The notes beneath the pieces are model-generated. The model made no database searches. It was given only the letters and a program-made list of their open reading frames with translations, and was not told the origin of the DNA. The translations under genes were made by a program, and so were the position numbers. DNA of 64,000 bases from Callorhinchus milii (taxonomy: Eukaryota): contig NW_024704742.1 in NCBI RefSeq assembly GCF_018977255.1, positions 115,508,001 to 115,572,000 of the forward strand, read 5' to 3'. Each line of letters starts with the position of its first letter. The stretch's first letter is position 1. Shown here piece by piece: positions 22,621 through 63,608 of this stretch.

Positions 22621-22624
22621 GTAC

Positions 22625-22981: not shown

Positions 22982-22993
22982 GTGAGTCCATCA

Positions 22994-35673: not shown

Positions 35674-35752
35674 AATCTGAAGGGTTTTTTCTCTGACTCA
35701 ACCTCATTCAACATTGCAATGGACATGCTGTTTACGAAGGGCAGCTATGAAA
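35674..35752 (+). CDS. PTCD2: PTCD2 exon 5
   Basis: ccccaag|...|gtaagt; 79 nt; [26 protein letters not shown] (PPR motif start). Confidence 0.95.
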
Positions 35753-37052: not shown

Positions 37053-37144
37053 GTGCTCTGGGAGTTCTATTGGAAATGAAGAATCAAGGAATAAAATTCA
37101 ATAATGACACTTACACATTGGCATTTGCTATCTGCTACAAACTG
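37053..37144 (+). CDS. PTCD2: PTCD2 exon 6
   Basis: ggaaag|...|gtaagt; 92 nt; [31 protein letters not shown]. Confidence 0.95.
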
Positions 37145-37256
37145 GTAAGTAATTAATTGGCAATGCATTAGCCAGTGGTTCAAATCTATGTATTGTGTTT
37201 TATAAGTAGAAATCTGATTTGTTAGAAGGTGCCTAAATATCATTGTTGTTAATGTT

Positions 37257-37633
37257 GTGGAGTCCTGTGGCTCATTGGTTAAAGCACACGTCTCGCAAGC
37301 GAGAGAACTGGGTTTGATTCCCGGCCTGGTGAAATGTTGGGCAAGTTTACTTACTCCATACTCCTCTATTTACCTAGCAGTCAATAGGTTGTTAGTCGAT
37401 TGGCGGATCGCTTTTCCAGGGGTAAAAAATTCCTTCAAAAAAAAATAATGAATTGGTCAGTTCAATGCGCGACTGTTCGTGGGGCACTGCTGTGTGCAAA
37501 TGGCTGCAGCGTTTCGCCCATAAATATACAATCAATTCACTTTACAGTATATTCTGTGAAGCACTGAGACGTCTCGAAGACACGATAAGGCGTTATATAA
37601 AATGCAAGGATTATTATTAGTAGTAGTATTATT
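37257..37633 (+). mobile_element. Related SINE subfamily with a longer middle segment
   Basis: GTGGAGTCCTGTGGCTCATTGGTTA head, same core and (ATT)n tail. Similar minus-strand copies at 20200-20490 and 52563-53114. Confidence 0.85.
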
Positions 37634-38444
37634 AAGTGTATTAGCACAATTGACACAAATTCTAACCCACTTTTCAGAAGGATTATTCAGTGATGCTCTG
37701 GGTTCCTCTGGAACCTGCAACATCTCAGAACATTGCACCTATGTGCCTGGGTGTCTGCAGTGGCACTTAATGTTTTGAAGGAAACCAAAGCGCCCAGTGT
37801 GTGTGTATGTATGTATGTGTATTGTGCTGTGGGTCTAGTAACCGGGGTGAGGAAGGGGAGTTGAGAGGTTGGCCTCTAGAGAGTACAAGTTAAGAGTTCA
37901 CGATGGCTTTTGAGACACTGCACAAACCACATGTTTTCCTGATGCTGACTGAACACAACTTAATTTATCTACTTGGGATCCGTGGAACCGCAATTGGGGA
38001 TATCAATCACACCTTAATCATGTTGTCTGGTCTAGGACCAGCACCAGAGCTCATACTTTTAATGACATGAAAAAGCAAGGAGTATACTATTGAGGGCTGC
38101 ATCTTCCAGAGGAAAATTGTGTAAAAATTCTCCCGGGTACACAAAAAAGTATACTGAAACCCCATTTTTTTCTCATCTTGAGGCTTATTTGAGGTGTGTT
38201 AATTTAAGACTAGTCCTCTAGTTGTATATTCAGCGCCCAAGTTAAACACCCTACTTGCATGGAGTTTCTCCTTGATGCCTCAAGTCCTGTTTTCTCCAAT
38301 TAAAACACGTTCAGTTCTGGTACATCTGTATGTTTGCTCGCTGTCGTGCTGTCCCACCTAAGAGGCATAGCTCCCTGTGTAGATCTGTTTTTTCTTTGGA
38401 CTCCAAATTTGTTTCCTCATAAAAATATTATGGTTTTCACACAG

Positions 38445-38558
38445 AACACTGCTGAATCGTTCAAGATCTGTACCATGCTGCTTGAGGAGTCGTTAGAAAA
38501 AGGAAACCTCATCCCTCGGCATGCATACTGCTTCGCTGTGGCTCTTGCAATCAACCAG
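38445..38558 (+). CDS. PTCD2: PTCD2 exon 7
   Basis: cacacag|...|gtatt; 114 nt; NTAESFKICTMLLEESLEKGNLIPRHAYCFAVALAINQ. Confidence 0.95.
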
Positions 38559-38676
38559 GTATTTTTTTTTACGCAGTCCAGTTGCAATGAAAGTGTAAAC
38601 GGATAATGGGACTTTTTAATCCAGAGTTGCATGTACAGTGTAGTTCCATTTTCTTCAATGAATAGTTGAATAGTCT

Positions 38677-38810
38677 TCAAAACACAAAATACTGCAGATG
38701 CTGGAATCTGAAACAAAAACAGAGAGCTGGGAAAACTCAGCAGGTCAGGCAGCATCTTTGGAGAACGAAAAGTGAGTCAACGTTTCGGGTCTATGACCCT
38801 TTGTCAGACG
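38677..38810 (-). mobile_element. Second copy of the same Penelope-type repeat
   Basis: Minus strand GTCTGACAAAGGGTCATAGACCCGAAACGTTGACTCACTTTT...AGATGCTGCCTGACCTGCTGAGT, homologous to 50518-50614. Confidence 0.7.
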
Positions 38811-41522
38811 ATGTTGATTCACTAACTAATTTTATTTGGGGTATTATTGGCCGGGACACCGGAGAGAAAAACTCTTTTCTCTTAGTGGCATGGGATCTTT
38901 AATGTCCACCTGAACAGGCAGACCGGGTCTTGGTTTAATTTCTCACCTGAAGGACAGCACCTACAACAATGGAGCACATCCTTCCCTAAAAGCTGATCTT
39001 TTTCACATGGGGATCTCTGCAGGAATGGCACTTTACATCCCCAGTTGTTCTTTAAGCTACAGTATTCCCATGCAGAGGTGCTTTTTCAGCCTCAATATGT
39101 GTTTTCCTCTGTTTCTATGTTTAAAGTACATTGATGCCCCTCACTACAAAAACAAATTTTTTGGGGACAATGAAGTAATCAGATTCAGATTACTTTTCAG
39201 ATTCTCTGATAGTTCAGCAAATTTATCCAGTGAGTAACTGAAGTATGTAGACCGGGGAAGGTTCGAGGGTCAATTCCTGGACTGTACTGTTTTTTTTGGG
39301 GGGGGTCAGCTGGGTGTCTGGCACATGCGCAAACCCATCACTTAAAAGTATCCAAACCAAACTGAGATTTCCATGCCTCCCACCTACACATGATAATTCC
39401 AGAGACAGATTGTTGAAATGGAATGTGCACTCTCCCTGTTTACCTAATTCCTGAAAGTACTAGGCACAGGGTAAAAGTTGGATTAAGGAGAAAAATATCA
39501 TCCAGAATTCTTGCTCCTGATCACTAACTGGAGATGCATATACTTGGGACATCAGAAGAAGGCAATGTTGATCTGGGATGTTGAGCTCTCAGAGCAAATA
39601 ACCTACTAATGTTTACTGCCAAGACTGACACATATGACTAGTGGCCACTTGGGAAAGACACCAGAAAGGGCCTGTGAATTTATACCACAGTAGAAGAAGA
39701 AAAAATAGTTTAAAAACCTTAAGGAAAAGAGAGGAATTTGTTTGTAAAAAAAAAAGCTTTTCATAAAGAGCCTGGAGCAGATAGTGACATAAAAAGATCT
39801 GTTTGGAATTTAGCAAAGGACCTATTAGTATTTGAACAGATTTACCATGTTCCATTGAACATCCTGAACACAAGATTAGCCTAACCTCTCTTATTGCAGA
39901 GTGCTTAACCAGCTTCCATAGGAGTAATTGTGAACCAAGAACTTAAAAAGGAATTTGCATTTTATAGCACCTTATCATGTTCAAAATGATTCGAAGTGTT
40001 TCACAGATAATTTTTCTCAAGAGAAGAGAGTGCTTCTTTTGTAGGCAAATGTGACAGCTGTAAGTGCAAGTGACTAGTAAGTGACTAGTAAGTGCAACAA
40101 ACATCTTACGTACATCCGTGAGATGAATGATTAATTAATCTGGAGGATTGCAATTTTTGTACATTCAAAATTCAGTATCTTGTAAATGTGTTTGCCCTGC
40201 TTTGCTTATAATTGTCAAAGTTTTATTCTTGGTAATGTGACACCTAAGAAGTCATATCAGTTTGTGCAGAGTATCTGGTCATGCCCAGTGAAACAATCCA
40301 AAGGTCAGATAGCAGACAGTGAGCAATATTGATAGGGAAAAGAACATAACAATTAAATGCAAATTGATCACAGCAGGAGGATAAAGTCACTGACACAATC
40401 ACTGCCTGGCATGTACTGTGCAAGAGAAGAGCCACTGCACAATATGTTAATCTGTATTGATTTTCAAAATTTTGCAGTAAGCAATCACTTAACCGGTGAC
40501 ATTGGGAGTGGGAGGTTGAGGGACCAGTGCAGAATTGCTTTCTTCTGACTCCTGTTTGTGACCTAAATTAGAGTATGTGCAAAGCTTTGGATGAATGGCA
40601 GTAATAGGGTTTAACAACTCTTTTAGATGAAGGTTGTGCACATTTTACTGACACCATGATGTGAGGCCTGAAATACACAGTAATGGTGCAACAGTAGACA
40701 TTTTCACTCTCCAAACGTCCCCATGATTTATTCTTGGGAGGTTTGTGCTCAGTACAGTGGCTCTGCCTCCCAGGAAATATAAATCTAATGGGGACACTGG
40801 GAAAGTGAAAAGGTCTGCTGTTGCACCATTTTGCGCTCATCCTTTGAGGAACGGAGCGATGTAGCTGATGCTGTTCTGAATCTCTCCCTGATTTATTCAT
40901 GGGGGAAAGATGCAGCTGAGTACAGGAATACCAAATCCTCTGTTGGTTGGGATCAATATAGACAGCACTACCGATCTAAGGAGGTTGATCTGACCTAAAC
41001 GGCGAATGGAGAAACTGGAATATGGGTCTACCTTGAGCTCTTGGTCACTAAGCTCTGACCAGGAGCGGCTTGCCCACTGTCTCCAGCTCAGGTGCCCATT
41101 CAGCTGGGTAAAGCACTTTGACACATGAAAAGCATTGTATAAATGTAAATTGTACGGCATTTTCTATCTGGAGAATTGTTGGCCACTACTAGGAACAACT
41201 CCTTTCTCTTATTGAATATTGCATTTAACATCCATCTGAACTGGCCACCGCATCTCGATTTAATGTCTGATCCACAGGATGTTACAAATCCAATTTGAAA
41301 GATTTATGAGGAAATGCAGTTTCTTTGATTTGAAATTATATTCTGCTTTTTGAAACCTTCTCAGTATGACTGAAAGGGTCTGAAGTACATAATAATAATA
41401 ATAATATTAAGTACTTTTTGTTGAACACTTATTGTTGGAAGCGTGACTGCGGTATACGAGATCTGCCATGAAGATTTGCTTTGGAGCAGCTAACGTTTTC
41501 TTCCCTCTTTAATATTTTTTAG

Positions 41523-41597
41523 AATGATGTGACAAAAGGACAGTCTATTTTTTCGCACATCTTGAATGCAGACAACAAAATCTGTTGTAACCTTCAT
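41523..41597 (+). CDS. PTCD2: PTCD2 exon 8
   Basis: tttttag|...|gtaagt; 75 nt; NDVTKGQSIFSHILNADNKICCNLH. Confidence 0.92.
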
Positions 41598-42402
41598 GTA
41601 AGTCCTTCTCTGTTAATTGTATTAATCTGAGCACTAGTTATACTGAATGTATTGGTTCAGGTCAGAAAAAAATGGCTTGGACAACAGGATGTAGTGTTTG
41701 GCTTCTTCCTTCTTGCAGCAGGACTGGTGCTAACAGCAGGCTCGCTCCAAAGTAAATGAAGCATTTCTCTGAAGCTAAACCCGTGCTGCACCAAACTTGG
41801 TGAAAAAAGAATGAAACAATGTTCTCATTACAGTTTTAAGACCTCAAGACTCAAGACCTTCTTGTTCAACCACACCTTTGTTCACCCTCCTACCCCCACC
41901 CTCCCTGCCTCCACCCCTTGTTACCCTCCACCCCTCCTATTCCCAACACCCAGCTCAGTTGCAAATTCTTGACTGTCCAGGGCCTTGGGATGTCCTCCCG
42001 ACATAATTTGTTGTTTTAAAAAAAAGGTTCAAACTGTCCTACTCTCCTACCACCACCACCACCACCATCAAATCATTAGTGATAAGAAAACATGGAACAA
42101 TAAAAGCCCATTTGGCCCTTCAGGCCTGCTCCTCTCACAGACTACACAGCAAACTATACTGTGGACTACACCAAATGTCCTGGGAGGACAATTCTCTATA
42201 ACACTTTCTTCCCCCACTCTTAAATCCCCAGCCACTGGTCCCAGAATCAACCATGTCACTTTTCTCTGAATGCTCATTAGTTTCCTGTGTGAAGGTCAAG
42301 TGCCCAATACTGCACCAGTGATCAATGTCAGGTTAGAATAATGTATTTCTCATTGAATATCCTGAGGGCTGTGTGTAATGGATCTGTCCTACATTTCTTC
42401 AG

Positions 42403-42516
42403 ATCCTCATACTGGCGATGTCAGGAGCACAACAGGAGTTATGCTCAGTGTTAGAATCTGCGGTTATAAGCTATGTCTCTCCATTTGTGAAGAAGATGGA
42501 ATTTTCACAAGAATTG
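42403..42516 (+). CDS. PTCD2: PTCD2 exon 9
   Basis: ttcttcag|...|gtaggt; 114 nt; ILILAMSGAQQELCSVLESAVISYVSPFVKKMEFSQEL. Confidence 0.9.
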
Positions 42517-43324
42517 GTAGGTATGAATATGATGTGCCTGAGTAACTAGATTAGTTCACAGATATGCGTTTCCTGGAAGGAATGTCCCCAAATAAGTCTA
42601 TGTGGGTCAGCATAATGTAACTGTTACCCATGTTTTTCTTTAAAGTTTCTCCGAAGAATTTTTAAATGCTTATTTGACTGCCGTGGGGATGATCTCTTAT
42701 CCAAACGTACCTTATGTGTACAGTGTTTAGAGAACCCTGTGTTTGAAAGAATTTGACCTACTTTAACAACACTGACTCCACTCTTTGTGTATTTGGAGTT
42801 TGCTACATGTATCATCCAAAGCTGTAGGTGCAAATCAACAAGCAAGCAGTGTGCAGAATGGGTGGCATGATCTCCTGTGGCTCTGTACTACTGTCCCTCT
42901 TCCCCCTCCGCACTCCTTCCTCTAAAGTTAAAAGTATTGCTCTGCGCTCTGAATATATTAATGTTGCAATCAGTGATTTTCAACACCTTACTATGAGGTG
43001 CTGACCACTCCAGTTACACAAATAAAAATACCTCCAAATCATTTGCTTAATTCTTTTTCTTATGTGTCAAAGTTATCCTCAATTACACCAAAAATGTAAG
43101 AGATACCAAGATAACACTTACATTATTAAATTGCTCTCTTGTTTCAAGCGCTCCAAGACGCTACCCCTTGTGGAGAGCTCTACATAAATGCAAGTTGTTG
43201 TTTTGGTAGTGTTCATTTCTTGTATTATAGATGCCACCTAACATATGTGGTGCATTAAAATTTACGTTCTGTTAAACGTGGCTCATAGCACCGATTTGTA
43301 ACTCTTATTCTGTCTTCCATTAAG

Positions 43325-43549
43325 CTGGGTGCAGTACGTGAAACCTTGGAAAATGATCCAAAGCTTCAGAACTCATTTGAGGATGTCTATGAAATGCTGA
43401 CAAAGTCTGGACAGATCACAGCCCTGACCCTCGATGAGATGCTTTGTCAAGCACCAAATGGAAAGAAACAACTTAATCTTCTGCTGGGTCAGAGGAAGAT
43501 CAGTCGCCGGACCTTCAAACCCCTGCAGTCAGCCTTGTTTGCTGAGTAG
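43325..43549 (+). CDS. PTCD2: PTCD2 exon 10 (last coding exon)
   Basis: cattaag|LGAVRETLENDPKL...GQRKISRRTFKPLQSALFAE*; matches recalled human C-terminus RRTFQPLSQSLLAE. The ten exons sum to 1137 nt = 378 aa plus stop, with consistent phases. Confidence 0.96.
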   Translation: MGAVRETLENDPKLQNSFEDVYEMLTKSGQITALTLDEMLCQAPNGKKQLNLLLGQRKISRRTFKPLQSALFAE

Positions 43550-48102: not shown

Positions 48103-48208
48103 ATGGCGGGTTTATTGAAGGCTCTGGCTTCACAGAGAAGCACCATCGCCTGCAGAAGCCCAGCCTGCTGCCCTGTGTCAGCCATTCACAGCGGCCAACA
48201 CAGAGGCT
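48103..48208 (+). pseudogene. IDH2-like exon 1 (transit peptide), open frame
   Basis: AGATGGCGG start; MAGLLKALASQRSTIACRSPACCPVSAIHSGQHRG+T|gtgagt, phase 1; compare human IDH2 MAGYLR...PRRHY. Confidence 0.78.
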
Positions 48209-49690
48209 GTGAGTTCATCCACAATCTCTCTTAACCTTTCGCGCTATTCTGGCTAAAAAAAACCATAAACCCATAACTTTCATTGTTTCCCGACAAGTAC
48301 AACAGAGAGAGCTTTGGGTCTCAGGGATACACATGGGATTCAGCCACTGGCTGCACATCGCCTTGTAATTCTCGAGGGAGGTTTAGCAGGAGCAGATTTC
48401 TGAGCTCCTTGCAATATTGAGTGCAAACTGTCTCATTTTTCCCAGTTAATGATTGATCATTGGTCCGTGAGGACAAAGCAGATCATTCAGTCACCCTGCG
48501 CCTTGCAGGTGATGTGGTAGTAATGAGAGCACGAGCTAAGCTATTCAGAAGGAGTGTGACACACTGAAGCCCAGCAGCCCATTGGAGGGAATGGTCCAGG
48601 TCTCTGAAGTTTAACCTTGAGTGAACTTAATGGGGAAATTATTCAAAGCATTTTAATTGAAATCCCGAGGATCCTCTAATTGCTCTGTTATTTATACAAA
48701 ATCTACGGCAATAACCTCCTCATTCAGCTGTTATTGTAGTGGGTTACCAGAAGGAAAGGAAATGGATTGTTAAATATATGTTTGATGCTAACCACAATCT
48801 CTGGACTTAAGTCAAACTTGTAATACTGTATTTCCTTTATCTTTGTTATAAATTAGCTTTTTTATTTGCTCATGACTGCCCCTGGGATCCTGATCTATAC
48901 AGTACGGCTTTGTTCTCTTAAACATGTGCTTCTCGCTGGCCGCAGTTCAGTTCCACTTCATTTCTGTAATAAACTGGGGATGGAGCTCAGAATTGGTTTA
49001 AAACACAGACTTGTTCCACAGGGGGAACAGGTATATTGGGGACTTGGTCCCAAAGCACTGATCGCTAATCCTGGATTGGCATCAGAGTGCTCAAGAAATC
49101 AGGACTTGAGGGTGGAAAAAACAGGTCAGGGGACAAAAGCTGGATGCGTACAGATTATACAAAGACATTTGTGTACAAAAATACACAGTCACTATACTTT
49201 AACCGTAAATCTCTTGAAGAGCATAGTGCTATCCTGATATGAAAAGCACTATGTCGGAGGTGAGGATTATTCTATGCTAATTGTACTTAAAGTCATATAT
49301 GAGGGAGGGGGAATCATATATGAAGCGATTTCTAATAAAATTGTTCAATGAGGAAACTAGAAGTACATCCCTGCAATCCATAGAAGCTCTGCTCTGACAC
49401 AATTCACTTCACTGATTGGGATAGCATACTTCTGATTGACAGGAGAGTGTAACAATAATAATAATAATAATCCTTGCATTTGATTTAGTGCCTTTCATAT
49501 CAGAAGGATGTGTCAAAGCGCTAACCATGATTTTCTGTAAAGGCTAGTGACTGTGTGTTTTGTAGGTGACCAATTTAAGGAATCCTGTTACAAATCATAT
49601 TATATCAGATCCACCCTCCCCCCAAGGTTTCTTACAGTAGAAGAAAAAGGGAACACAGTTGATTGACAGATGTCTCCTTCTTATCCATAG

Positions 49691-49783
49691 ATATTAAGAA
49701 GTGAATTAAAGCTGAGAATCCTATGGTTGAAATGGATGGAGATGAAATGGCCAGAGTCATTATGGGCCCTCATTAAAGAAAAG
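49691..49783 (+). pseudogene. IDH2-like exon 2 (stop and +1 frameshift)
   Basis: catag|(Y)IKK*IKAENPMVEMDGDEMARVI/WALIKEK|gtac; TGA at 49702 where IDH2 has Arg. Confidence 0.93.
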
Positions 49784-49929
49784 GTACAACTTGTCACATG
49801 CTGAACTCAAATGCACAGAAATATTTTGTGTTTTGTTACATTCATAGTGGAGATTCATTTTGAGAGCCGAGATGCAAGGACATAGCTATGAGGAGAGCCT
49901 AGAGAGGTCAGGACATTTCCCATTAGAGC

Positions 49930-50275
49930 ATTGTGTGAGTGTGTCAGCCAGGCTCAGTTGGCTCACTCTTGTTTCTGGGTCAGGAGGTTGTGGGTTTAAT
50001 CCCCACATTGAGATTTTGAATTCATGCAGTGTAGGCTGATGCTCCAGTGCAGTGCTGTGCTGTGTTGTTGGAGGTGCCATCCTTCTATTGAGATATTAAA
50101 CTTAGTCCCTTCTGCCTGTTCAGGTGGATTGGCACTATTTGAGAAGAGAAGTGAGTTTCTCTCTGTGTCCTGGTCAACAATCCCCCACATAAAATTGGTC
50201 ACTTCATGGCTGTTTGTGGGACATTGCTGAGTGGCTGCCATGTTTGCCTGCAAAATACACAACACTACAATTTAC
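49930..50275 (+). mobile_element. Older, degenerate Deu-domain SINE
   Basis: GGCTCAGTTGG...GGTTGTGGGTTTAATCCCCAC head; GCTGTTTGTGGGACATTGCTG...GGCTGCCATGTTTGCCT core. Similar relics at about 16190-17150, 32520-33180, 36500-36700 and 55980-56210. Confidence 0.65.
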
Positions 50276-50517
50276 AGTGATAGGTTACCCTGAAAGACGA
50301 TTAGGATCTTCTGATGCACAAATTGAGCCACTCCAAGTGGGGTATGTTGGTTAGATTGATGATTCTCTTTTTCTGTGGAGGCTAAGTGTCCTCATTTTTG
50401 GAAACTCCTCCATGACCAAAAAAAACTCTTTGAAAAAAATTTCACAATTTTTTCAGTGAAGGGAAAATGAGGACAACATTTCCATAAATTGCCCACCAAG
50501 GATTTCAATATTCTCTT

Positions 50518-50614
50518 TCTGATGAAAGGTCATCAACCTGAAACGTTAACTCACTTTCCTCTCTCCATAGATGCTGCCTGACCTGCTGAGTGTTCCCGGT
50601 GACTTCTGTTTTTG
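50518..50614 (+). mobile_element. 97-bp Penelope-type terminal-repeat fragment with a minimal hammerhead-like core and 15-bp TSD
   Basis: CTGATGA-A-AGGT-CATCA-ACCT-GAAAC-GTT, flanked by identical TTTCAATATTCTCTT at 50503-50517 and 50615-50629. Confidence 0.7.
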
Positions 50615-51850
50615 TTTCAATATTCTCTTAGCCGTGTATTCTTTTTAAGTGATGCTTATGTTCCTGAACTTGGATTAATCTACAGAAAGGCAAACAATTA
50701 CAAAATATACCGTTATTATAGATACATTATGGTCTAAACTCAGTGACCTTATATCTGTCTTTCAGCCTAAAATTAAAAACACATATGAATCTATACTAAT
50801 AAAGATGAAATTTCTGTGTCTGCCTGTCTGTGTGTCAATCTACATTCCATATTGGATCCTTTGGTTGCAAGCGAAGCTGCAACGGGAACAGCTACGGGTT
50901 TCACTTTATACACAATAACTAAGTACGGGAACTGGATTCAGGACCTTTGACCTTGGATTACTATAGAAAATGGAACGGCAAATGTGTTTGTTTTCTCAAT
51001 GATTTTCATGTTTTTTTGCTTTGTTTTTCTCTGTTACTTTCATCTACAGTACTATTGTCTGTGCGAATAAGATAGTTTTACATTTATCCTTTTGTATTTG
51101 TGTTTTGTTTTTCGTTTGCCTAAAAGTATATGATCACTGCACGACACAGTAAATTCTTGGAAACCTTTTGACACACCCTCCCAATGTGAAAGGTTCCATA
51201 TCAAATGCAAGGATTGATATTTTCATTATTATGTGGAACAATGAAAATATTTAAGGGATATGGGGATAAGGCAGGGTTAGGTTATTGGCTGGAGTTAGAT
51301 TAGAAGATCAGCCATGATTGAATGGCGGGGCAGGCTCGAAGGGCCAAATGGCCTACTCCTGCTCCTACATGTTATGTTAAACTGACATTCATCTTGCTTC
51401 TTTTATAATTTTCCTTTGCATGGAATTAAAATGTTTCTTTCTCCCTCTTTTTTCCTCTTTTAAAATGTTTTGGGGCTGAAACTCCACCTGGGTCTAGGTT
51501 TATTTTATTTATGAAGCATCTTGGAGCTCTCAGAATTGAGCAAATTCTGAAATACAGCCTTAATTTTGAAGCCATTTTTCTGTAAATGCTTTTAAGATCA
51601 ATGGAAAACAAACTTCAAGACTGAATTCAACAATTTGCCAATTTCTGGGCACTCCAAAATACAATACTATTAATAATATTTGCATTAGTTACAGCACTTC
51701 ATCATGTCATCGAAATCTCAGGAATTACTGTGAAGTGTAGTAAATGTGTTCCCCATATTTGCAACTGAAATTGTTTATTCAGGAATCCTGTAAAGGAATA
51801 AAGCAAATTTGGACCTGAAAGATCTGATGTTACAGTAAGTGTTAACATGG

Positions 51851-52076
51851 CCTTTTGCGTTCCCCCCCCCCCCCCCTCACCCTACCCCCCTCCTCGCTCC
51901 CTCCCTTCCCTCCCCTCACCCTGACCATTTCCCCCCTCGCTCCCTCCCTCCCTCCCCTCACCCTGACCATTTCCCCCCTGCTCGGGTCATGACCCAACTG
52001 TGCAGCGCCTTGGGACGTCCTCCTGACGTGAAAGGCGCTTTATAAATGGAATCTTGTTGTTGTTGTTGTTGTTGTT
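51851..52076 (+). mobile_element. L2 3'UTR fragment immediately upstream of the IDH2-like exon 3 acceptor
   Basis: Near-identical to 19590-19741, with an internal duplication and a (GTT)n tail. Confidence 0.9.
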
Positions 52077-52086
52077 TACGTTTCAG

Positions 52087-52251
52087 CTTATTCTACCCAA
52101 TGTTAACGTGGAACTGAAATATTTTGACCTTGGTCTCTTGAATCGAGATAAACAAATGATCGGGTCACCATCGAATCAGCACTGGCAATGCAAAAATATA
52201 GTGTTGCAGTGAAATGTGCCACTATTACACCAGATGGAGCCTGGGTTAAAG
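52087..52251 (+). pseudogene. IDH2-like exon 3 (-1 frameshift)
   Basis: tttcag|[54 protein letters not shown]|gtgc. Confidence 0.95.
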
Positions 52252-52562
52252 GTGCATATTATTTGGTGAATTCATTTTATTTGGTCACTAGATATAGTAT
52301 ATTATCAAATTGAAAACAGCTTATTCAATCTTTTTGCTTTCAACACCGAGACTGAATTTGTCCTTCTTCGTGAAGTCTGCAACTTCTACATTGATGAAGG
52401 AATAATGCAACTTAAAAATGTCTTTTGATGTTTCTTCTGTCCTACCTGGTAAAACCAGCTGTTCAACATCGCAATCTGAAGTGTGGAGAATCCAATTGCA
52501 TTTCACTCAGATGCCAGCAGGTGGCAGTGGTGTGCTTATAATTATAATTCAATCCTAACAAC

Positions 52563-53114
52563 AATAATAATCCTTGCATTTGATATAACGTCTTTTCACG
52601 TCCTCGAGGCGTCTCAAAGCACTTCACAGAATATACTGTAAAGTAAATTGACTGTATATTTTGTGGGCGAAACGCGACAGCCAATTGTGCACAACAGTGT
52701 CGCACAAACAGTCGTGGATTGAGTGACCAATTTATTATATTTTTTAAGGAATTATTAACTCCGGAAAAGCAATCTGCCAATCGACTAACAACCGGGTTTC
52801 TACTTACCGTTAGGTAAACAGGGGTGTGTCTAGTAAGGAAAATTGCCCAACGTTTCACCTGCTGGGAATTGAACCCCAGGTCTCTCACTTGCTCAAAAAA
52901 ACAAAAAACAATAATAAATTGGTCATTTTCAATCTACGACTGTTTGTGGGACATTGCTGTGCGCAATTGGCTGCCGCGTTCGCCCACAAATATACAGTCA
53001 ATTCACTTTACAGTGTGTTCTGTGAAGCACTTTGGGACGTCCTCCCGACATGAAAAGCGCTATATCAAATGCAAGGATTATTATTATTATTATTGCTCTA
53101 GCCACTGAGCTGCA
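52563..53114 (-). mobile_element. SINE interrupted by an oppositely oriented SINE 3' half (about 52893-53095)
   Basis: The minus-strand head resumes at about 53095 (GCTCTAGCCACTGAGCTGCAGGACTCCAC) after the nested copy. Confidence 0.85.
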
Positions 53115-53399
53115 GGACTCCACAATGAAGTGCTCACTGGCATGTACAATTTTATAATAATAATAAGCCTTCCATTTGATGTAGCGCCTTATCGAGTCGT
53201 CGACACCTCAAAGCACTTCACAAGATATACGGCAAAGTGGATTGACTGTATATTGTTTGTTCAAACACTGTCCGAAACACTGATTGTCCAGCACCTTGGG
53301 ACATCCTCTCAATGTGAAAGGTGGTATACAAATGTAATTTTTTTGTTGTTGTATTGTGGGTGAAATGATTTTACAATTTTACAGCACAGAAGGAAGCCC

Positions 53400-55272
53400 A
53401 AGTCAGGAGGAACGTCCCAAGGCACTAGACAATCAATGTTTTGGACCTGAGCTGGGGGTCGGGATTGGGGAGGGTGGAGAGCCGAAGGGGGAAGGAGGGT
53501 GACTGAAGGCATGGTTGAAGAGGAGAGTCTTGAGACGGGTCTAGAAGGAGGTAAGGAAGGGGGCGAGGTGGATGGACTGCGGAATGGAATTCCAGAGGGT
53601 GGGGGCAGAGTGGCAGCAGGCCCGCCCACCAATGGCGAGGCGGGGACATGAAGCAGGCCAAGAGCCCGCTGAGCGGAGGGAGCGAGCAGGATGCTAGAGT
53701 GTTAGGAGGTCGCAGAGGTAGGGGGGAGCAAGGCCATGGAGGGCTTTGAAGATGAGGACCAGGATCTTGAATTGTATCCTCTGTGTGATGGGAAGCCAGT
53801 GGAGTCAGGTGAGGATGGGTGCGATAGGGTCATGGTGCAGGAGACGACACAGGCCTGCAAAGTTCTGGATGATCTGCAGCCTATGCAGGGAGGAGTTGGA
53901 GAGGCCAACAAGCAGGGAGTGGCAGAGCCGGGCGATGTTGTGGAGGTGGGGGAAGGCAAAGCAGGACATAGCATGAATGTGGGGTAGAAAGGATAGTTGA
54001 GGGTCAAACAAGTACACCAAGGTTCCAGACCTGCTTAGTAAGGTGGATTGTGCAACCTTGGATGGTGATGCTGTCAGTGCCTGAGGTGTGGAGGTGCTGA
54101 TGAGGGCCAATCAGGAGAGCCTCGGTCTTGTTGACGTTTAACTGTAGAATGTTAATTCTCATCCAGGACTTATAATAATAATCATCCATAATAATAATAA
54201 TAATAGACTTGATGTCTGAAAGGCAGTCTGGAGTTGACGGTGGAGGCAGAGAGATAGAGTTGGGTGTCATCGGCATACATGAGGAAATTGACCCCATGTC
54301 TACGGATGATGTCACCAAGAGGGAGCATATAAATATTGACGAGAAGGGGATCAAGGACAGAACCCTGAGGAACACTGCACGAGACTTTGCGGGGGCTAGA
54401 GGAGAAGGAGTTTGTGGAGATGATGTAGAGATGGTATGAGAGGTGAGGTAGAGTCTGAACCATTCATGGATGGAACCATGAAGGTTGAGGTGAGAGGCAG
54501 TGGAGGAGGATTCAGTGGTCAATGGTATTGAAGGCAGCAGAGAGGTCAAGGAGTACGAGGAGGCAGAGGGAGCCCTGGTCACAGATGGACCGAATGTCAT
54601 TTGTCACTTTGACCAAAGCTGTTTCTGTGCTGTGGGCGGCACAGAAACTGATTGGAGGGGTTTGTGAAGGGAGTGGCGGGAGAGGAAGGAGCGATGCTGG
54701 GAAGCAACGTCTCATTCCAGGACCTTGGAAAAGAAAGGGAGGTTAGAGATGGGGTGGCAGTTTGAGAGCAGGGATGGGTACAGGGAGGGTATTTTAAGGA
54801 TTTTTGATGATGCCTGTTTTTAAAGGGGTGAGAATGGTGCCAGTGGATAGGGAGAGGTTTATGATGTCTGTGAGTCAGGGGGCAAGGTGGTGGTAAGGTA
54901 AGGAGTAGGGATGGGGTCGAGGCAGCAGGTGGTCAGTTTCATGTGGGTTATGATGGTGATGAGAGAGGAGGGAGGGATGGGTAGGGCCCTGGGTGTGAGG
55001 GGTTGACGGGGAGGGGGTAATAGACGGAAGGGCAGAGGCAGCTGAATGGATCCACTTGACTTTGGTTTCAAGCAAGTCCAGCATCTCCTCGCAGTTGGCG
55101 TCGGAGGAGAGAATGGGTGAGGCATGAGAGGGTGGGTGGAGGAGCAATTTGGTGATGGAGAAGAGGAGCCTGGGGTTGTCCTTGGTCTCCAAAATTGTCT
55201 TGGAGTAGAACAACAATTTAGCAGAGCGGTAAGATTTGATAAAGTCCAGCCAGATCTGCCGATGGACTGTTA
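53400..55272 (-). mobile_element. L2 LINE, longest fragment in the window
   Basis: Broken ORF2: [38 protein letters not shown]. Confidence 0.92.
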
Positions 55273-55324
55273 GGTTGGACACATTGTGCCCTTGTAGGTA
55301 AGAAAGCCAATCAAATGTTGATAT

Positions 55325-55617
55325 GTGGTTAGTGCACTCGCTTTGCAAGCGACAGACCTGAGTTCAATTCCAGGCACAGGGCGAAACCTTGGGCAAGTTT
55401 CCTTACTCCACACGCCTAATAATAATCCCTCCAAAACAAAAAACAATAATAAATTGGTCATTTTCAATCTATGACTGTTTGTGGGCTGTCACTTGGCTGC
55501 CACGTTCGTGCACAAATATACAGTCAATTCACTTTACAGTATATTCTGTGAAGTGTTTTGGGGCGTCTAGAAGACGTGAAAAGTGCTACATCAAATGCAA
55601 GGATTATTATTATTATG
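55325..55617 (+). mobile_element. Same SINE family, slightly 5'-truncated
   Basis: Aligns by eye with 56705-57011. Confidence 0.88.
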
Positions 55618-56392
55618 TAAAGCTAAGGGTGTGTAGTATAAATTGAGACATGTGATTATATAATATTCCCTGGCACTGGTGAGTTTACATCTGGAGTACC
55701 ACATACATCTTTAGTCTCCCTGCTTCAAAAATAGATGAGAACAGAGACCCATAGGAAATTCAAATAGATAGATATGTGGAACAAACTGCGAGCACAATTA
55801 GTCAAATGATAAACCACAAAGGGTTTCAAAAGAAACTACAAAAGTTCCTTGCAACTAAAATACTTTTACATTTACTAGTGAAATGAAGACGCGTGGTGTT
55901 TGTTCAATACAGAAAATTGAATGAATCAGATTGCGAATAACGGTTACTTTGATGATGTACCACTTTCATTTATGTAGCACCCTTCTGTTTGAAAAGAGAA
56001 GGGAGTTTCTCCTGGTGTCCTGGATAACTGCAAAATAAAAACGGTCATTCATTTCATAGCTGTTTGTAGGAGATTGCTGTGATCAAATGGGCTGCAGTGT
56101 TCACCCACAAAACATGCAGTCACTCCACTTTACAATATATCCTATAAAGGTTTGATTCACCCTCCAGACGTGAAAGGCGCAATTTCAAATGTAATGATCA
56201 TTTTATTATTATTGACCCAGGGTAACGTCTTGACGCATTTTACGTGTAATTTTGGAGCAGGAGAATGGATATTGAACATTACACTTTTTGATTTTAGAAA
56301 AATAATCTTGAACCCTTTATTGTTTGATATAATTATGTGACTGGTGAAGCAGCTTCTTAAGCTCATACTTGCCTAATGTCTTTACCTTCCAG

Positions 56393-56535
56393 TATCGAGT
56401 CATCGATTTTGTTATGGACCAGCCAGGTAATTTTAAACTGGTCTTCACACCCAAGAGCAGGAGCAAATCCCTGGAGTGGAATGTGTTTGATTTCCCTGGT
56501 GGAGGGGAGGAATGGGAATGTATAACACTGACGAG
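56393..56535 (+). pseudogene. IDH2-like exon 5 (-1 frameshift)
   Basis: ttccag|YRVIDFVMDQPGNFKLVFTPKSRSKSLEWNVFDFPGGG/GMGMYNTDE|gtaag. Confidence 0.94.
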
Positions 56536-56685
56536 GTAAGACGCTCCTCTCTGCTAAACATGTCTATGAAGGTGGAAGTTCCCAATCTACTTGTATTTAA
56601 ACTGCAGTCATCGAGGTCTGCTTTGCAGGTGGTGCTGTGTGTCAGTTCTGGAAACTGCGTCATTTACTGCAGAACCATTCGGTTT

Positions 56686-57011
56686 GTGGAGTCCTGTAGC
56701 TCAGTGGTTAGAGCACTCGCTTTGCAAGCGAGAGACCTGAGTTCAATTCCAGGCAGAGGGCGAAACCTTGGGCAAGTTTCCTTACTCCACACAGAGCCTA
56801 ATAATAATCCCTCCAAAACCAAAAACAATAATAAAAAAAATTGGTCATTTTCAATCTACGACTGTTTGTCGGACATTGCTGTGTGCAATTGGCTGCCGCG
56901 TTCGCCCACAAATATACAATCAATTCACTTTACAGTGTGTTCTGGGACCGCTTTGGGACGTCCTCCCGACGTGAAAAGCGCTATATCAAATGCAAGGATT
57001 ATTATTATTAT
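56686..57011 (+). mobile_element. Full-length tRNA(Ala)-derived SINE with a Deu-like core and an L2-type tail
   Basis: A box TAGCTCAGTGG, anticodon arm CTCGC-TTTGCAA-GCGAG, B box GAGTTCAATTCC; core GCTGTGTGCAATTGGCTGCCGCGTT; tail GGGACGTCCTCCCGACGTGAAAAGCGCTATATCAAATGCAAGG(ATT)n. Confidence 0.9.
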
Positions 57012-57417
57012 TCAGGGCCAGATTCGCAGTTTGTGTCCTTTTTTATTCTCACATGGGTTTGAGTTGAAATTATAACAAATTTTTAAAAAATCAAGGCCTA
57101 TTTAGTTTCGCACAAAAGCATCAAAGTGCTTAACAGTGGAGAGGAGGTGACCGTAAGCACCGTCAAAAATGAGGGTTTTCAGATGGGACTTGAGAAAGAC
57201 GAGAAAGGGATCAAGGCGGAGAGATTGAGGGAGAGTGTTCCACACTTAATAATGTATCAACTGAGTGTTAGTGCATTTGTAATTTCAACAACAACAGCAA
57301 ACTTGGATTTATATAGCGCCCTCCACGCCGGACGGCGTCTCAGAGCACTTGAATTTAGTTTATGAAGGTAATGCTAGTCCATTAATAACCTTTGCCCTGT
57401 TCTGCTTCTTGGCCTAG

Positions 57418-57553
57418 TCTATGACAGGATTTGCACACAGCTGATTCCAGCACGCATTAGCTAAGAAATGGTCCCTTTACATAAGTACCAAAAACACCAT
57501 TATGAAGTGATATGATGACGCTTCAAGGATATCTTCCAGAATATTTTCGAGAA
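57418..57553 (+). pseudogene. IDH2-like exon 6 (two stops, -1 frameshift)
   Basis: cctag|[43 protein letters not shown]|gtaag. Confidence 0.95.
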
Positions 57554-58372
57554 GTAAGTTTTTTTCCATATAATTCTGAGATAAGAAATCATGCCCTTGT
57601 CATCCAATGCTTTACGCTCTGTAACCTCCAATAGAAAGGGAGGGTAGGGGTAGGTCGACATGCTCTGTATCAAACACTCTCCATTTGGTTAATGCATCTC
57701 TATCAGATTCTGTAGCCTGGCTGCCTGGAGGAGAACCAGCTGCCCTTCCAGTTGGGTTCTGATGAAATGTTAAGATATCTATGGTCTCAGTCGTTGTGAC
57801 CTGAGCCCTTTTATCTACTCTACTTGCGAGTCTTTAAAGTAGCTTCTTATTCCATTAACATTCAGACATGAAAAGCAATACGAGCCACAACGTGAGTAAA
57901 AGACTCAAGTACTTTTGCCGGTATTGGGCAAGTTTCCTGGAAGATGAACTTTGCTCCTTTTGAAGTTGTCTTTCATCTGATAAATATATGCAATATTACA
58001 ATGGAGTTTCTTAACAGGATACCTTAATAATGATTTTGTGTACTCATGTGGACTCCTTCCAGCAATGGCGATGAGCTATGGAAATTATCCTTTTACGTGA
58101 TTTTACTTCCAGAACAGAATACCAGCGTGGTGCTTGTGCATGTGATGCTTTTGAGTTAAAAATAAATGGATATTGCCATGTGGTATTGACTAGATTTTAA
58201 TAAATAGTGTGAAATCCTGAGGGCAAACAGTTACAGACCACAATCCAACATCTATGGAGCTGCTACTTCCTAAAGAGAGAAGAGCTAACAATGGATGGTG
58301 CGGTACTTACATTTCTTTTTCTACTGGCAAATGACGATTCAGAGTAAAATTTTATTTTTTTCTGGTTCACAG

Positions 58373-58777
<405 letters not shown>

Positions 58778-59520
58778 GTTATAGTCTTAACCAGGCAAGC
58801 CAAATAGTGATACTGACTTCATTGGAACATTACAGTTCAGTGATTTATCTTGTGAGTCACTGAGTGGTACAGATTGGGCAGGTCCAGTTCAATCCCTGGT
58901 CTGTGCTGAGTAATCTGATCTCAGAGCAGAGCAATTGTTGTTTCACTACGATTTGTTTTGTCACCAAGGGTTGGGAACGGAATATCAGGCACCTCTGATT
59001 GCTATCGAACAACAACAACAGATTACATTCATATAGTGCTTTTCACGGTGGGAGGACGTCCCAAGGCGCCTTCCAGCAAAGGTCTCTATCTCTGCCCTTG
59101 CAGGAAAGTGTGCATATGGAGTCAGAGTAGAAATTCCACCAGAATTTAGACTTACACTGTACTTTTAACATTTCAGTGTATCCAGAATTTGGACAATTCT
59201 AAAACACAGTCTTAATTGTGAAACCAGTTTTCTGTATGTGATTTTAACAAATACATGAGTATGTTAAAACACACGTTGGGACTATGAACTCAATTAGTCT
59301 AGGCTGACACTCCAATGTAATGCTGGGGAATGAACCATTGTTGAAAGTGCTGTCCTCTTTACCCTCCTCAGCTTCCTATTCCCTCCCTCCAGCCCCCACC
59401 CCACACCCCGCTCGGTCTCCCAGCCAGATTTGTGAAGCACTTTGAGACATCCCCTGAATGTGAAAAGTTATGTGCAAATGGTTGTTATTGCCTTTTGCAT
59501 TTACAGTGTTTTGTCTATAG

Positions 59521-59633
59521 GCTTTGGTTCTCTTGGACTGATGACATCAATGCTTGTTTGTCCAGATGGAAAAACCATTGAAGCTGAGGCAGCTCACGGA
59601 GCAGTTACTCGCCAATACAGGGAGTACCAGAAG
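59521..59633 (+). pseudogene. IDH2-like exon 8 (open frame)
   Basis: ctatag|[38 protein letters not shown]|gttag; [11 protein letters not shown] is the IDH2-type wording. Confidence 0.96.
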
Positions 59634-59915
59634 GTTAGTGACCCTGCGTTTGATCAATAGATCAACAGCCACCCAGAAAGGTCCTTTGTCCACTTTATCC
59701 CTCTCCCCCCCTGCAAGCTGGCCAAGCTTTGTAACCTTATGAATCGATTGGTGCTGGAGAAAATATAGCCCACAAATATTTCCTGTAAATTTCCTCCCTC
59801 CCTGTTAATTCTTGTAAGTTCTATATTGTTGTCATTTTTATATTGTTCAGAGGACTGTGGTTTTCCAACAAATACGCATGGGTAAGGTCTGATCCTAGGA
59901 TGCAATTGAAATGGA

Positions 59916-60221
59916 TAATAATAATAATAATTCTTGCATTTGATATAGTGCTTTTCACGTCAGGAGGACGTCCCAAAGCGCTTCACAGAACACACTGTAA
60001 AGTGAATTGACTGTATATTTGTGGGCGAATGCGGCAGCCAATTGCGCACAGCAATGTCCCACAAACAGTCATAGATTGAAAATGACCAATTTATTATTGT
60101 TTTTGGTTTTGGAGGGATTATTATTAGGCATGTGGAGTGAGGAAACTTGCCCAAGGTTTCGCCCTGTCTGGAATTGAACCAGGTGTGTCGCTTGCAAAGC
60201 GAGTGCTCTAACCACTGAGCT
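59916..60221 (-). mobile_element. Same SINE family, nearly full length
   Basis: Reverse complement of the 56686 copy, including the tRNA head. Confidence 0.9.
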
Positions 60222-60825
60222 ACATAGAATAGGGTTGGGCTGAATGTTTCACAGCAAATTTGATTATCTGTGAATCTATAATGGAACACTGCACTTTTCA
60301 CCTCTTTGTTGTAATGATATTAATGGGATGTGATAGTCAAACCAGTGAGAGGCCGAACACCCTATCATTCTCTTGAGCTGTTTCTGTACTGTAGTGAAGT
60401 CCAGATGAAAGCTGGGTTTAATTCCATGCTAATTAAGGCTTTAAATAAAAAATTTCACGTCTTTCTTTACCTGCATTGATAAGTAAAGTAGAAAAAAATC
60501 TTACATTTACCTTTCACATCAGGAAGATGTCTCAAAAATTGGTCATCCATTTTGTGGCTGTTCAGGGGCATTGTCTGCAAGATGCACAGTCACTTAATTT
60601 TACAGTATACCTGTGAAACGTTCTGAGATGTTTTGATGACATAATAAGGTGCATTAGCGATATTATATTACAAGGAGTCACAGTGAAGGTTGGCACTGGA
60701 TTAAAAAAAAGTTTGAAATGGGAAACAGATGGCCTCAAATGGGTTTCCAGGTTTGAAAGAATTTCTGACTGGGATCCCTCCAGTCACTGTATCATGGTTG
60801 GTCCCAGGTGACGTCCCTGTTTCAT

Positions 60826-61676
60826 TGTCACGTCTGGCGTCCCCCAGGGCTCTGTCCTTGGCCCTCTTCTCTTTAATATCTACATGCCCCCTCCTTAGTG
60901 ACATCATCCGCAGACATGGGGTCAACTTCCACATGTATGCGGATGACACCCAACTCTTATCTTTCTACCTCCACCCTCAACTCCAGGACCACTGTTGTCC
61001 TGACAGACTGCCTGTCGGACATCAAACCCTGGATGAGGGCAAATTTCCTACAGTTGAATGTGAACAAGACTGAGGCCCTCCTGATTGGCTCGCGCCAGCG
61101 CCTCAGCACCTCAGGCTCTGTTAGCATCAACCTCCATGGTTGCACACTACAACTCACAAAGCCAGTCAAGAACCTAGGTGTCTTGTTCGACCCTCAACTG
61201 TCTTTTCTTCCCCACATCCAAGCCATGACCGCTCTGCCTTCCCTCACCTCCGTAACATCGCCCAACTCCACCACTACCTCACCCCTCAGGCCTCTGAAAC
61301 TCTTGTTCATGCCTTCATCACCTCCAGACTACCAACCCGCCCGTTCCCTCCACTCAGCTGGCTCCGGTCTGCTCCATGTCCCCCAACCCACCTGCCCCAC
61401 CATTGGCGGGAGAGCCTTTAGCCACTCTGCCTCGAACCTCTGGAATTCCATCCTCCAATCACTCCGCCTTGCCCCCTTCTTAGCCTCTTTCAAGTCCTGC
61501 CTCAAGATCCTCCTCTTCGACCATGCCATCGGTCATCCCCTTCCCCTCCCTTCCCTTCTCCCCACCTGACCCCAGCTCAGGTCTGAAATGCTGTACACTG
61601 TCCATCGCCTTGGGACATCCTCCCAACGTGAGAGGCGCTATACAAATGTAATCTACTTGTTGTTGTTATTGTTGTT
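60826..61676 (+). mobile_element. L2 fragment with an internal deletion
   Basis: HMYADDTQL and NFLQLNVNKTE; (GTT)n tail. Confidence 0.92.
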
Positions 61677-62027
61677 CATTGCTGCTCCCGTTTATTGAGT
61701 CCGGCTGAAAATAGGATATTGACCTAAGCTACACCAATAGAAATTTACAACCCTCTTGAAGCCAACAGAAATACAATATTTAGATAACCAAATGTATTCC
61801 AGAACCAACATGACATGAGTGGTGCACAAGTTGTAATATTTTAGAAATCAGCCTTAGGACCAAACTGTTGTGCTAAAGTCAGAGGGGGTTTAGCTTCACA
61901 GCCAGTCTATAAGAACTATAAAAAAAAATGTTGTAAGAGGTTATGGGAAAAGGCAGTAGAATGGGATTAAATGGATTGCTCTTTCAGAGAGGTGGCATGG
62001 ACAGAATAAGTCAAATGGTCTCCCATT

Positions 62028-62330
62028 TGGAGGTCAGAGAGGTAGGGGGGGGCAGAGGAGTGCAGGGACTTGAATACGAGGGTGAGGATCTTGAAGTCGA
62101 TCCTCTCTGGGATAGGCAGCCTATGCAGTCTGGCAAGGACTGGGGTGATCGGGGAGCGGAGTTTCGTGTGGGTGAGAATATGGGCGGCAGAGTTCTGAAT
62201 GAGTTGGATTTTATGAATGGTAGTGGATGGGAGTCCGGCGAGGAGGGAGTTGGAGTAGTCCAGCCGAGAGGTGACAAAGGCATGAACCAGAGTTTCAGCG
62301 GCTTTTCGGGAGAGATATTGACGGAATAGG
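62028..62330 (-). mobile_element. Internal L2 fragment bracketed by inverted CR1-derived arms
   Basis: AAETLVHAFVTSRLDYSNSLL...ERIDFKIL. Confidence 0.88.
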
Positions 62331-62565
62331 AGTAGCTCTCTGAGAGAGCAATCCATTTAATCCTGTTCTACTGCCTTTTCCCATAACCTCTTATAACATG
62401 TTTTTTAACCTGATCAGGCAAACAGGATCTCTAACTTCTCATTCAAAGGACAGCACTTCCACCAATGCAGTGTTCCTGCAGCTCTGCATTGGAGTATCAG
62501 CCCAGACTGTGTTCAACATCCCATTTATGATACTCTAACTGTTTCCCTTTTTCCTTTGGGACTAG

Positions 62566-62658
62566 GTTTGCCCAGACTCTGGAGCGGGTATGCGTGGACA
62601 CTGTTTGAGAGTGGGGTCATGACAAAAGACTGGCTTTGTGTATCCATGGCATTCAGAA
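62566..62658 (+). pseudogene. IDH2-like exon 10 (+1 then -1 frameshift)
   Basis: actag|FAQTLERVCVDTV/ESGVMTK(D)/LALCIHGIQ|gtac. Confidence 0.92.
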
Positions 62659-63394
62659 GTACGTAACTATTTAATGCAAAACAATGAAAAACACAACTGA
62701 ATTGAAGCGGTTCTTAAAGATGGTTATGTATTGTGTGCAAGTCTGTGTCTTCACCTTCTATTTGTGGTGGTGATAGGGGAATATTTTTTGCATGTTGTGG
62801 GCTGCTGTTTTGGGTCTGAACGCAAATTGTAGCCATATAGAATGAACACAGCAAGTTAGCTAAACACCTCTGTTGCTCTTCATGTTCCACACTTTTACGA
62901 AGGTCTCTTTCCATTCTATTCTTGATAGCTGTATTCACAGACCTGAGTCAGATCTTTCCCTTATCCAAGCTACTCTTAATTTTGTAAAAAAATCTTTATT
63001 TGTTTTATGATTTTCCTCCATCTACACCACACAAGGGAAAATAGATCAAGGACCATTTTCTGGAATCCAGTTTATCTGTACCCCCTGATATACTGGAGCA
63101 TTGGAGAAACAAATGAGGGCTGGTTTACAAGAATTGATGTGAAGTCAGATTTGGGGCAGAGGAGATTCCAGGCACCCAGCAAGAGTTTAGGCCCAGTTTT
63201 CATTTTACCCTATCCCTGAGCTCGGGTATTCAGGTAGTGGAGAGGTTAGTTTTACAGAGAGTTATTTTATAGAGCTGTAAGCACCTGCTCAGACTGGGTG
63301 TACTGTTGAGCTGTGGTAAAATGGAAAACAACTGAGTGCTAGACATTGTTGTTGAAAGTCCCTGTTAACACATTGTAATATTTTCCTCTGTTAG

Positions 63395-63479
63395 TACAAA
63401 ACCAGGCCAACACTATGTGAACACTGAAGAATTTCTGAACGTTCTGAAGAAAAACTTGAACAAGAAGCTGAGTCTGTGA
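63395..63479 (+). pseudogene. IDH2-like exon 11 (terminal)
   Basis: gttag|TKPGQHYVNTEEFLNVLKKNLNKKLSL*; compare IDH2 HFLNTTDFLDTIKSNLD. Confidence 0.88.
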
Positions 63480-63602: not shown

Positions 63603-63608
63603 AATAAA
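63603..63608 (+). terminator. Candidate polyadenylation signal of the IDH2-like gene
   Basis: AATAAA about 125 nt after the stop, followed by GT/T-rich sequence. Confidence 0.45.

Follow-up and report, generated by a model that had tools for sequence, protein, structure and literature searches.

The window analyzed here is a stretch of 64,000 nucleotides from the elephant shark Callorhinchus milii, located at C1:115508001-115572000 in a genome of 991.5 Mb; coordinates are window positions unless a sequence prefix is given. On its plus strand, between an ATG at 48103 and a TGA stop ending at 63479, it contains the remains of a gene of the mitochondrial NADP-dependent isocitrate dehydrogenase (NADP-IDH) type, IDH2, which follows MRPS27 (-) and PTCD2 (+) and precedes a zinc finger gene of the ZNF366 type (-). 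This gene is the orthologue of an IDH2-like gene that is intact in sharks and rays. It is very probably a unitary pseudogene of that second enzyme, which would have been born together with ZNF366 in a block duplication, retained in elasmobranchs and inactivated late in chimaeras.

The IDH2-type exons and their intact orthologues

Numbered on the 11-exon plan of the IDH2 gene on C26, nine exons of the pseudogene are present (E1-E3, E5-E8, E10 and E11), and the internal exon borders read from the DNA are AG/GT in every case (Table 1). Homology to NADP-IDH of the IDH2 type (Pfam PF00180, Iso_dh) runs from one end of the protein to the other. Searched one at a time, exons hit IDH proteins at E = 1e-12 to 4e-19, and E8 taken by itself matches the solved IDH2 chains at E = 7e-18, values far beyond chance. 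The N-terminus encoded by E1 (MAGLLK...) is similar to that of the IDH2-like protein of Mobula. An earlier note on this DNA, made from the letters only, had listed nine IDH2-type exons with introns, a transit-peptide exon and a poly(A) signal; all of them were found, with coordinates exact to the base.

Table 1. Position and condition of the pseudogene exons and of the neighboring coding features in the window.
Feature	Position	Strand	Description
E1	48103..48208	+	ATG, transit-peptide-like N-terminus, 35 codons plus 1 base, then GT donor
E2	49691..49783	+	TGA at 49702-04 (Arg in sharks); +1 base at 49762
E3	52087..52251	+	One base lost near 52153; conserved PDEARVE changed to PDGAWVK
E5	56393..56535	+	-1 base at 56507-08; 90% identity (35/39 residues) with Stegostoma IDH2-like, 55% with ordinary IDH2
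E6	57418..57553	+	TGA at 57442-44, TGA at 57508-10, -1 base at 57517-18
E7	58373..58777	+	TAG at 58419-21; short interspersed element (SINE) splits the exon after ...ACKNY (58490)
SINE in E7	58491..58755		About 265 bases; (AAC)n run at its start
E8	59521..59633	+	Sole long exon free of lesions
E10	62566..62658	+	+1 at 62606 and -1 at 62631-32 (eight codons apart); TGA inside the shifted stretch
E11	63395..63479	+	TGA stop at 63477-79; 80% identity (20/25) with the shark IDH2-like C-terminus, 55% with ordinary IDH2
AATAAA, poly(A)-signal-like hexamer	63603..63608	+	124 bases past the stop
MRPS27, 5' coding exon piece	17297..17383	-	Pfam MRP-S27 positions 23-51; rest of the gene left of the window
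PTCD2	29341..43546	+	Nine colinear exon pieces; last exon 43289-43546

The closest relatives of these exons are proteins of sharks and rays. In a search restricted to full-length proteins and made with the public protein model of the locus (P0004, described below), elasmobranch proteins of the "mitochondrial-like" kind took rank 2 (P0121, Mobula hypostoma), rank 4 (P0123) and rank 6 (P0125, Stegostoma tigrinum). Rank 1 was a plant tandem artefact, two bony-fish models stood among the elasmobranch ones, and P0123 turned out to be an ordinary shark IDH2. Exon by exon, identity to P0125 is 76-91%, except for E10 at 55%, as compared with 41-79% to ordinary IDH2 (P0119), save one 12-residue piece of E6 at 92%. 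When the whole of P0125 was used for the protein search, only two close clusters were obtained, with 38 and 7 members, followed by ordinary IDH2 at 69-85% local identity and far lower scores. At least 15 shark and ray species have the IDH2-like protein, counted on the 22 of the 45 cluster members that were listed, and Mobula hypostoma has ordinary IDH2 as well, in a cluster that also holds the IDH2 of C. milii.

The IDH2-like proteins (XP_048384119.1 of Stegostoma tigrinum and XP_062905287.1 of Mobula hypostoma, under automatic NCBI names) have an orthologous exon set in common with the pseudogene, and derived residues are common to both in every retained exon, namely IKAENP, NRDK..DRVT.ES, IDFVMDQPGNFKLVF, TIMK, KLGIWY, AQMLK and KPGQHYV.TEEFL. 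The elasmobranch proteins are open over their full length of 440-452 residues, whereas the copy in the window has stops, frameshifts and a SINE and has lost two exons. Overall, the pseudogene is 78-81% identical to elasmobranch IDH2-like (81% over 343 columns), 71% to the IDH2 of C. milii and 62% to its IDH1-type protein. In a maximum-likelihood tree of 43 rows and 450 columns (LG+C20), the pseudogene and 12 IDH2-like proteins form a clade with 100/100 support, so that nesting within the animal's own IDH2 as a recent duplicate, named by the earlier note as a possible outcome, did not occur. Since the pseudogene is sister to all 12, the place where a chimaera belongs, it is the holocephalan orthologue of elasmobranch IDH2-like.

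Neighboring genes and origin of the paralogue

The ordinary IDH2 of C. milii lies at C26:4354050-4359919 (-), is open across its 11 exons and maps to the annotated IDH2 protein of the species (P0298). IDH2, the enzyme of structures 1LWD, 5I96 and others, has the Pfam family PF00180, the 11-exon plan, a presequence exon and the type of tail-to-tail zinc finger neighbor in common with the pseudogene. It differs in being a separate and intact paralogue that belongs to another clade, resides on another chromosome and has a neighbor of the ZNF710 rather than the ZNF366 type.

To the left of the pseudogene, MRPS27 exons were located by the Pfam MRP-S27 search at C1:115477131-115525383 (-). The last exon of PTCD2 matches 39 representative proteins, and among eight whose names were looked up six are PTCD2 and two are uninformative. 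To the right, the large exon of the ZNF366-type gene is a 448-residue open frame at C1:115609955-115611298 (-), 38.5 kb past the stop of the pseudogene, and its three nearest atlas clusters are named zinc finger protein 366. On C26 an exon of 478 residues (4345295-4346728, +), whose nearest atlas clusters are named zinc finger protein 710, stands 7.3 kb from the 3' end of IDH2 (-). The two zinc finger proteins are 53% identical over 384 residues and are each other's only close relative in the genome, with 74% identity over a test segment versus at most 50% for the remaining 100 matches (a 34-residue partial copy being set aside). The closest relative of ZNF366 in human is likewise reported to be ZNF710 (PMC1693901). 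Both IDH/zinc finger pairs are arranged tail-to-tail, IDH2-like(+)/ZNF366-type(-) on C1 and IDH2(-)/ZNF710-type(+) on C26, and the paralogous neighbors thus occur in matching order and orientation. The earlier note had foreseen this arrangement from the human gene order: PTCD2 adjoining on the left, ZNF366 just to the right on the minus strand and tail-to-tail with the IDH gene, a paralogous relationship of ZNF366 and ZNF710, and an intact IDH2 beside ZNF710 elsewhere in the genome. Each of these expectations was borne out, and the gene in the window is therefore not IDH2 itself.

The partial copy set aside in the zinc finger comparison is a stretch of 34 residues at C1:115611899-115612000 (+) that matches a portion of the ZNF366-type exon at 97% identity, on the opposite strand. 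It lies about 0.6 kb past the upstream end of the open frame and constitutes a small inverted partial duplicate.

The mirrored arrangement suggests a history in which a block duplication, no later than the emergence of jawed vertebrates, would have copied an ancestral tail-to-tail pair of IDH2 and a ZNF710-type gene. The event was probably a vertebrate whole-genome duplication, and IDH2-like most likely arose in it together with ZNF366. Bony vertebrates would later have lost the gene and elasmobranchs would have kept it, while in the chimaera line it would have been inactivated at a late stage. Since bony vertebrates share the ZNF366/ZNF710 pair, duplication as a block would date the birth of IDH2-like no later than that of jawed vertebrates.

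A number of observations weigh against this history. In the protein tree, which puts IDH2-like inside vertebrate IDH2, the gene does not fall outside all jawed-vertebrate IDH2; it joins bony-vertebrate IDH2 (95/90, on a branch of 0.026), a node that drops to 91/86 and is drawn open when the pseudogene and other long or partial rows are removed. Forcing jawed-vertebrate IDH2 together, the topology predicted for an ohnologue (a paralogue derived from whole-genome duplication), costs 5.25 log-likelihood units, with p=0.058 in the approximately unbiased (AU) test. Among the best 120 matches of the P0125 search, the IDH2-like clade included no protein of a bony vertebrate or a cyclostome, and for this reason the age of IDH2-like rests on one neighboring gene pair, of which the ZNF366 and ZNF710 labels are automatic atlas names. 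The elasmobranch genes are known here as proteins, C. milii being the only species in which the genomic position was seen. On a larger scale, the families AP3B1_C, RasGAP_C, Xlink and ERAP1_C, represented on C1 at 102-118 Mb, have their partners on C22 and not on C26 with IDH2 and ZNF710.

The matching families in human belong to a well-known paralogon that connects 5q13-q15 with 15q25-q26 and includes HEXB/HEXA, IQGAP2/IQGAP1, AP3B1/AP3B2 and VCAN-HAPLN1/ACAN-HAPLN3, the chromosome 15 members being together with IDH2 and ZNF710. Near the window, C1 contains Xlink (113.4-113.5 Mb), Glyco_hydro_20 (116.55 Mb), RasGAP_C (117.4 Mb) and AP3B1_C (118.1 Mb). Glyco_hydro_20 was found at its C1 locus only, a second gene being absent at E <= 1e-5. 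The part of the paralogon that resembles human chromosome 15 seems to be split in this genome over two small chromosomes or scaffolds (C26 measures 7.6 Mb), and the large-scale picture is suggestive rather than clean.

The main alternative is a duplication of IDH2 by itself, or of a small segment, in the stem of cartilaginous fishes after the split from bony vertebrates; the pseudogene would not be an ohnologue and its adjacency to ZNF366 would be due to chance. Such an origin agrees with the finding of clade members in cartilaginous fishes only (among the listed members of the P0125 search), and with a duplication node that follows the hagfish split (97/87 in the 43-row tree and 93/90 in a reduced tree). 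Placing IDH2-like together with cartilaginous-fish IDH2, as this origin predicts, costs 5.13 log-likelihood units and is not rejected by the AU test (p=0.071); the free trees, however, do not join the two. The long stem of IDH2-like (0.27-0.30) fits an old split, and chance would have to recreate a tail-to-tail layout beside the sole close paralogue of the very gene that neighbors IDH2. On these grounds a stem duplication is considered unlikely.

The protein sequences by themselves would not decide between genome duplication and duplication in the cartilaginous-fish stem, and since the tree does not separate the two origins the ohnologue case rests on synteny. The mirrored ZNF366/ZNF710 pairing is better evidence than the protein tree. 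The earlier note had proposed an ohnologue from the two rounds of vertebrate genome duplication (2R), a label that the mirrored tail-to-tail synteny favors and that the protein tree leaves undecided against a stem duplication. Its overall reading of the locus is supported.

Loss of the gene in the chimaera lineage

Lesions were read against the IDH2-like protein of Stegostoma tigrinum (P0125) in a frameshift-aware alignment, after which the DNA was checked by eye. Four in-frame stops, six one-base frameshifts and the SINE in E7 make eleven lesions, besides two absent exons. For E4 (residues 117-169 of P0125) and E9 (residues 353-384), two elasmobranch proteins used as tblastn queries (E <= 50, word size 2) gave only chance-level matches between the flanking exons, no profile search at the DNA level having been made. 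Beyond the SINE, E7 continues as DDDILAQ followed by G and the GT donor (58756-58777), with about four codons lost. The SINE belongs to a family with 19 further matches in the window, at 75-100% identity.

The introns of the pseudogene are also dense in SINE copies (e.g., 55325-55616, 56687-57011 and 59918-60224; zones at 52.5-57.1 and 58.5-62.4 kb and elsewhere), and include reverse-transcriptase-like open-frame fragments at 54004-54603 (-) and 60877-61569 (+).

The missing E4 is the exon that would bear WKSPNGTIRN...ITIGRH, and the DGDVQSD stretch of E7 is not intact, being replaced by the SINE plus DDD; both motifs are intact in P0125. Residues R140, R149 and R172 of human IDH2, encoded by E4 in that gene, are taken here to be the substrate-binding arginines, and the aspartates of DGDVQSD presumably bind the metal. 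The pseudogene does not retain this set of substrate arginines and metal-binding aspartates, nor an uninterrupted reading frame for a whole enzyme. Moreover, of the 118 alignment columns in which 41 intact deuterostome IDH2-type proteins never vary, 10 are altered in the pseudogene, compared with 0 or 1 in six intact controls. Judged by its sequence, the locus is a relic of the family by descent and can no longer make the enzyme.

It is highly improbable that C. milii still has a working gene here, with the lesions representing assembly errors, a defective allele or exon parts bypassed by alternative splicing. Contigs of another public run with the same organism label (X1) show 0 differences over 57410-57578, 58702-59940 and 62268-63600. 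As they are identical across E6, the end of E7, E8, E10 and E11, the lesions of E6 and E10 included, these lesions are not errors of the present assembly. What could be cited for a working gene is that E8 is clean, that all splice sites are canonical and that automatic annotation built a 206-residue "uncharacterized protein" (UniRef A0A4W3HPV3_CALMI; P0004) from parts of the locus. This model, issued under the name of a different source, has the same exon strings, letter for letter from exons 5-8, and must skip the broken parts, while its C-terminal portion is a read-through of SINE sequence at 60001-60177. As a C. milii entry, its exact match to the window exons also identifies the genome as that of C. 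milii. A0A4W3HPV3 is an annotation artefact and a wrong public protein model, and eleven separate lesions, two missing exons and 10 of 118 universally invariant residues replaced argue strongly against function. None of the listed runs that contain the stretch is recorded as RNA. Two runs guessed to be RNA and available as contigs (X9 and X17) gave a depth of 0.1 or less at exons 5, 8 and 11 and at unique flanks, together with repeat-driven depth at exons 6, 7 and 10, and are uninformative on transcription.

A hagfish IDH2-type protein produced 22 exon matches in the C. milii genome, distributed as ten on C26, six on C6, five in the window and one at C1:121.07 Mb. The large C6 exon scores 188-198 bits against cytoplasmic IDH1 chains and 177 against mitochondrial chains. 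The IDH loci of this genome are accordingly IDH2 (C26), an IDH1-type gene (C6), the pseudogene of the window and one fragment of the pseudogene. Intact orthologues are listed for 15 species of sharks and rays, and the own genome lacks a functional one; the pseudogene is thus unitary. A recent duplicate or a processed retrocopy of the animal's own IDH2 or IDH1, for which nothing speaks beyond family-level similarity, can be dismissed: eight intervals with AG/GT borders, placed as in C26 IDH2, separate the nine exons and exclude a retrocopy, and the 100/100 clade and the identity figures (71% and 62% to the own paralogues versus 81% to shark IDH2-like) refute a recent copy.

The fragment is a partial copy of the 5' end of the pseudogene at C1:121070953-121075619, 5.5 Mb away on the same strand. 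It is 80-89% identical, is interrupted by SINEs and spans window positions 46603-50126, taking in sequence upstream of the gene, E1 with intron 1, and E2 with the beginning of intron 2. At the site of the E2 TGA it has AGA (Arg), and the extra base of E2 is absent; because the fragment is without them, both E2 lesions of the window postdate this duplication. Lesions private to the fragment are a TAG in E1 and a change from GT to GA at the E2 donor.

The degree of decay offers an approximate time for the loss. The 10 altered columns among 118 invariant ones, plus the stops at conserved columns, correspond to about 0.04-0.05 substitutions per neutral site if about 2.3 non-synonymous sites per codon are assumed. 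A similar degree of decay follows from the indels, six of one base each over about 1,040 bases of coding sequence, if a ratio of indels to substitutions of about 1:10 is taken. If each neutral site changes at 0.3-1 x 10^-9 per year, as is assumed here, inactivation would have taken place some 40-170 million years ago, a soft figure that depends on that rate. Chimaeras and elasmobranchs separated about 420 million years ago. Decay of about 4-5% suggests that the gene worked for a long time in the chimaera lineage and was released from constraint only late, a direction that the data support. The earlier note had spoken of a second mitochondrial NADP-IDH lost late in this lineage, and the direction of that claim agrees with the neutral decay, the date being soft. 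The gene is dead in C. milii; it is not lost from vertebrates overall, as sharks and rays have it intact.

Contigs of a related organism (run X12) cover the unique parts of 56300-63600 at 88% likeness or more, and their E11 differs by 12 substitutions and by the deletion of one base at 63398. This relative may carry the locus too, possibly also in a broken state.

Place in the IDH family and a further feature of the window

IDH1 and IDH2 are both major cancer genes and, to our knowledge, are treated as the complete NADP-IDH set of vertebrates. A full-text literature search, covering mainly sources other than subscription journals and supplements, yielded no publication that deals with a further mitochondrial NADP-IDH of cartilaginous fishes. 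Public annotation already includes the intact elasmobranch gene, only under an automatic "-like" name. The accessible part of the whale shark genome paper reports 208 gene families lost in bony vertebrates and kept in cartilaginous fishes, and does not mention IDH in that part (PMC8455134). The sox15 gene of amniotes is reported to be an ohnologue lost piecemeal and caught as a pseudogene (PMC8244163). The present case resembles it in that a paralogue of genome duplication, if IDH2-like is one, was kept in some lineages and decayed in place in another. It differs in that elasmobranchs alone retain the gene, and in that this is a core metabolic enzyme for which no naming paper was found. As an instance of differential ohnologue loss it would be a clean example, not a surprise.

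We incline to the view that jawed vertebrates started with three NADP-IDH genes, and that IDH2-like, born with ZNF366 by whole-genome duplication, has persisted as a working second mitochondrial enzyme in sharks and rays alone, over a span exceeding 400 million years. Bony vertebrates would have lost it early, and chimaeras in a separate and far more recent event. If so, the elephant shark locus would give a dated picture of how an ohnologue dies, and chimaeras would be a natural knockout for the role of the second enzyme. Sharks and rays would have two mitochondrial NADP-IDHs, and chimaeras and all bony vertebrates one. A third old paralogue surviving only in elasmobranchs would revise the history of the IDH family and provide a natural experiment. 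The pseudogene would also place the gene, in its ancestral setting, between PTCD2 and ZNF366, which indicates where relics could be sought in other lineages.

Between the MRPS27 piece and PTCD2 the window contains a degenerate microsatellite of about 6 kb (20677-26827), with a left part rich in GT and G (20677-22642) and a right part rich in CA and C (23003-26827). Its GC content reaches 0.69, its GC skew goes from +0.67 to -0.81, and all three plus-strand frames are open for about 4 kb.

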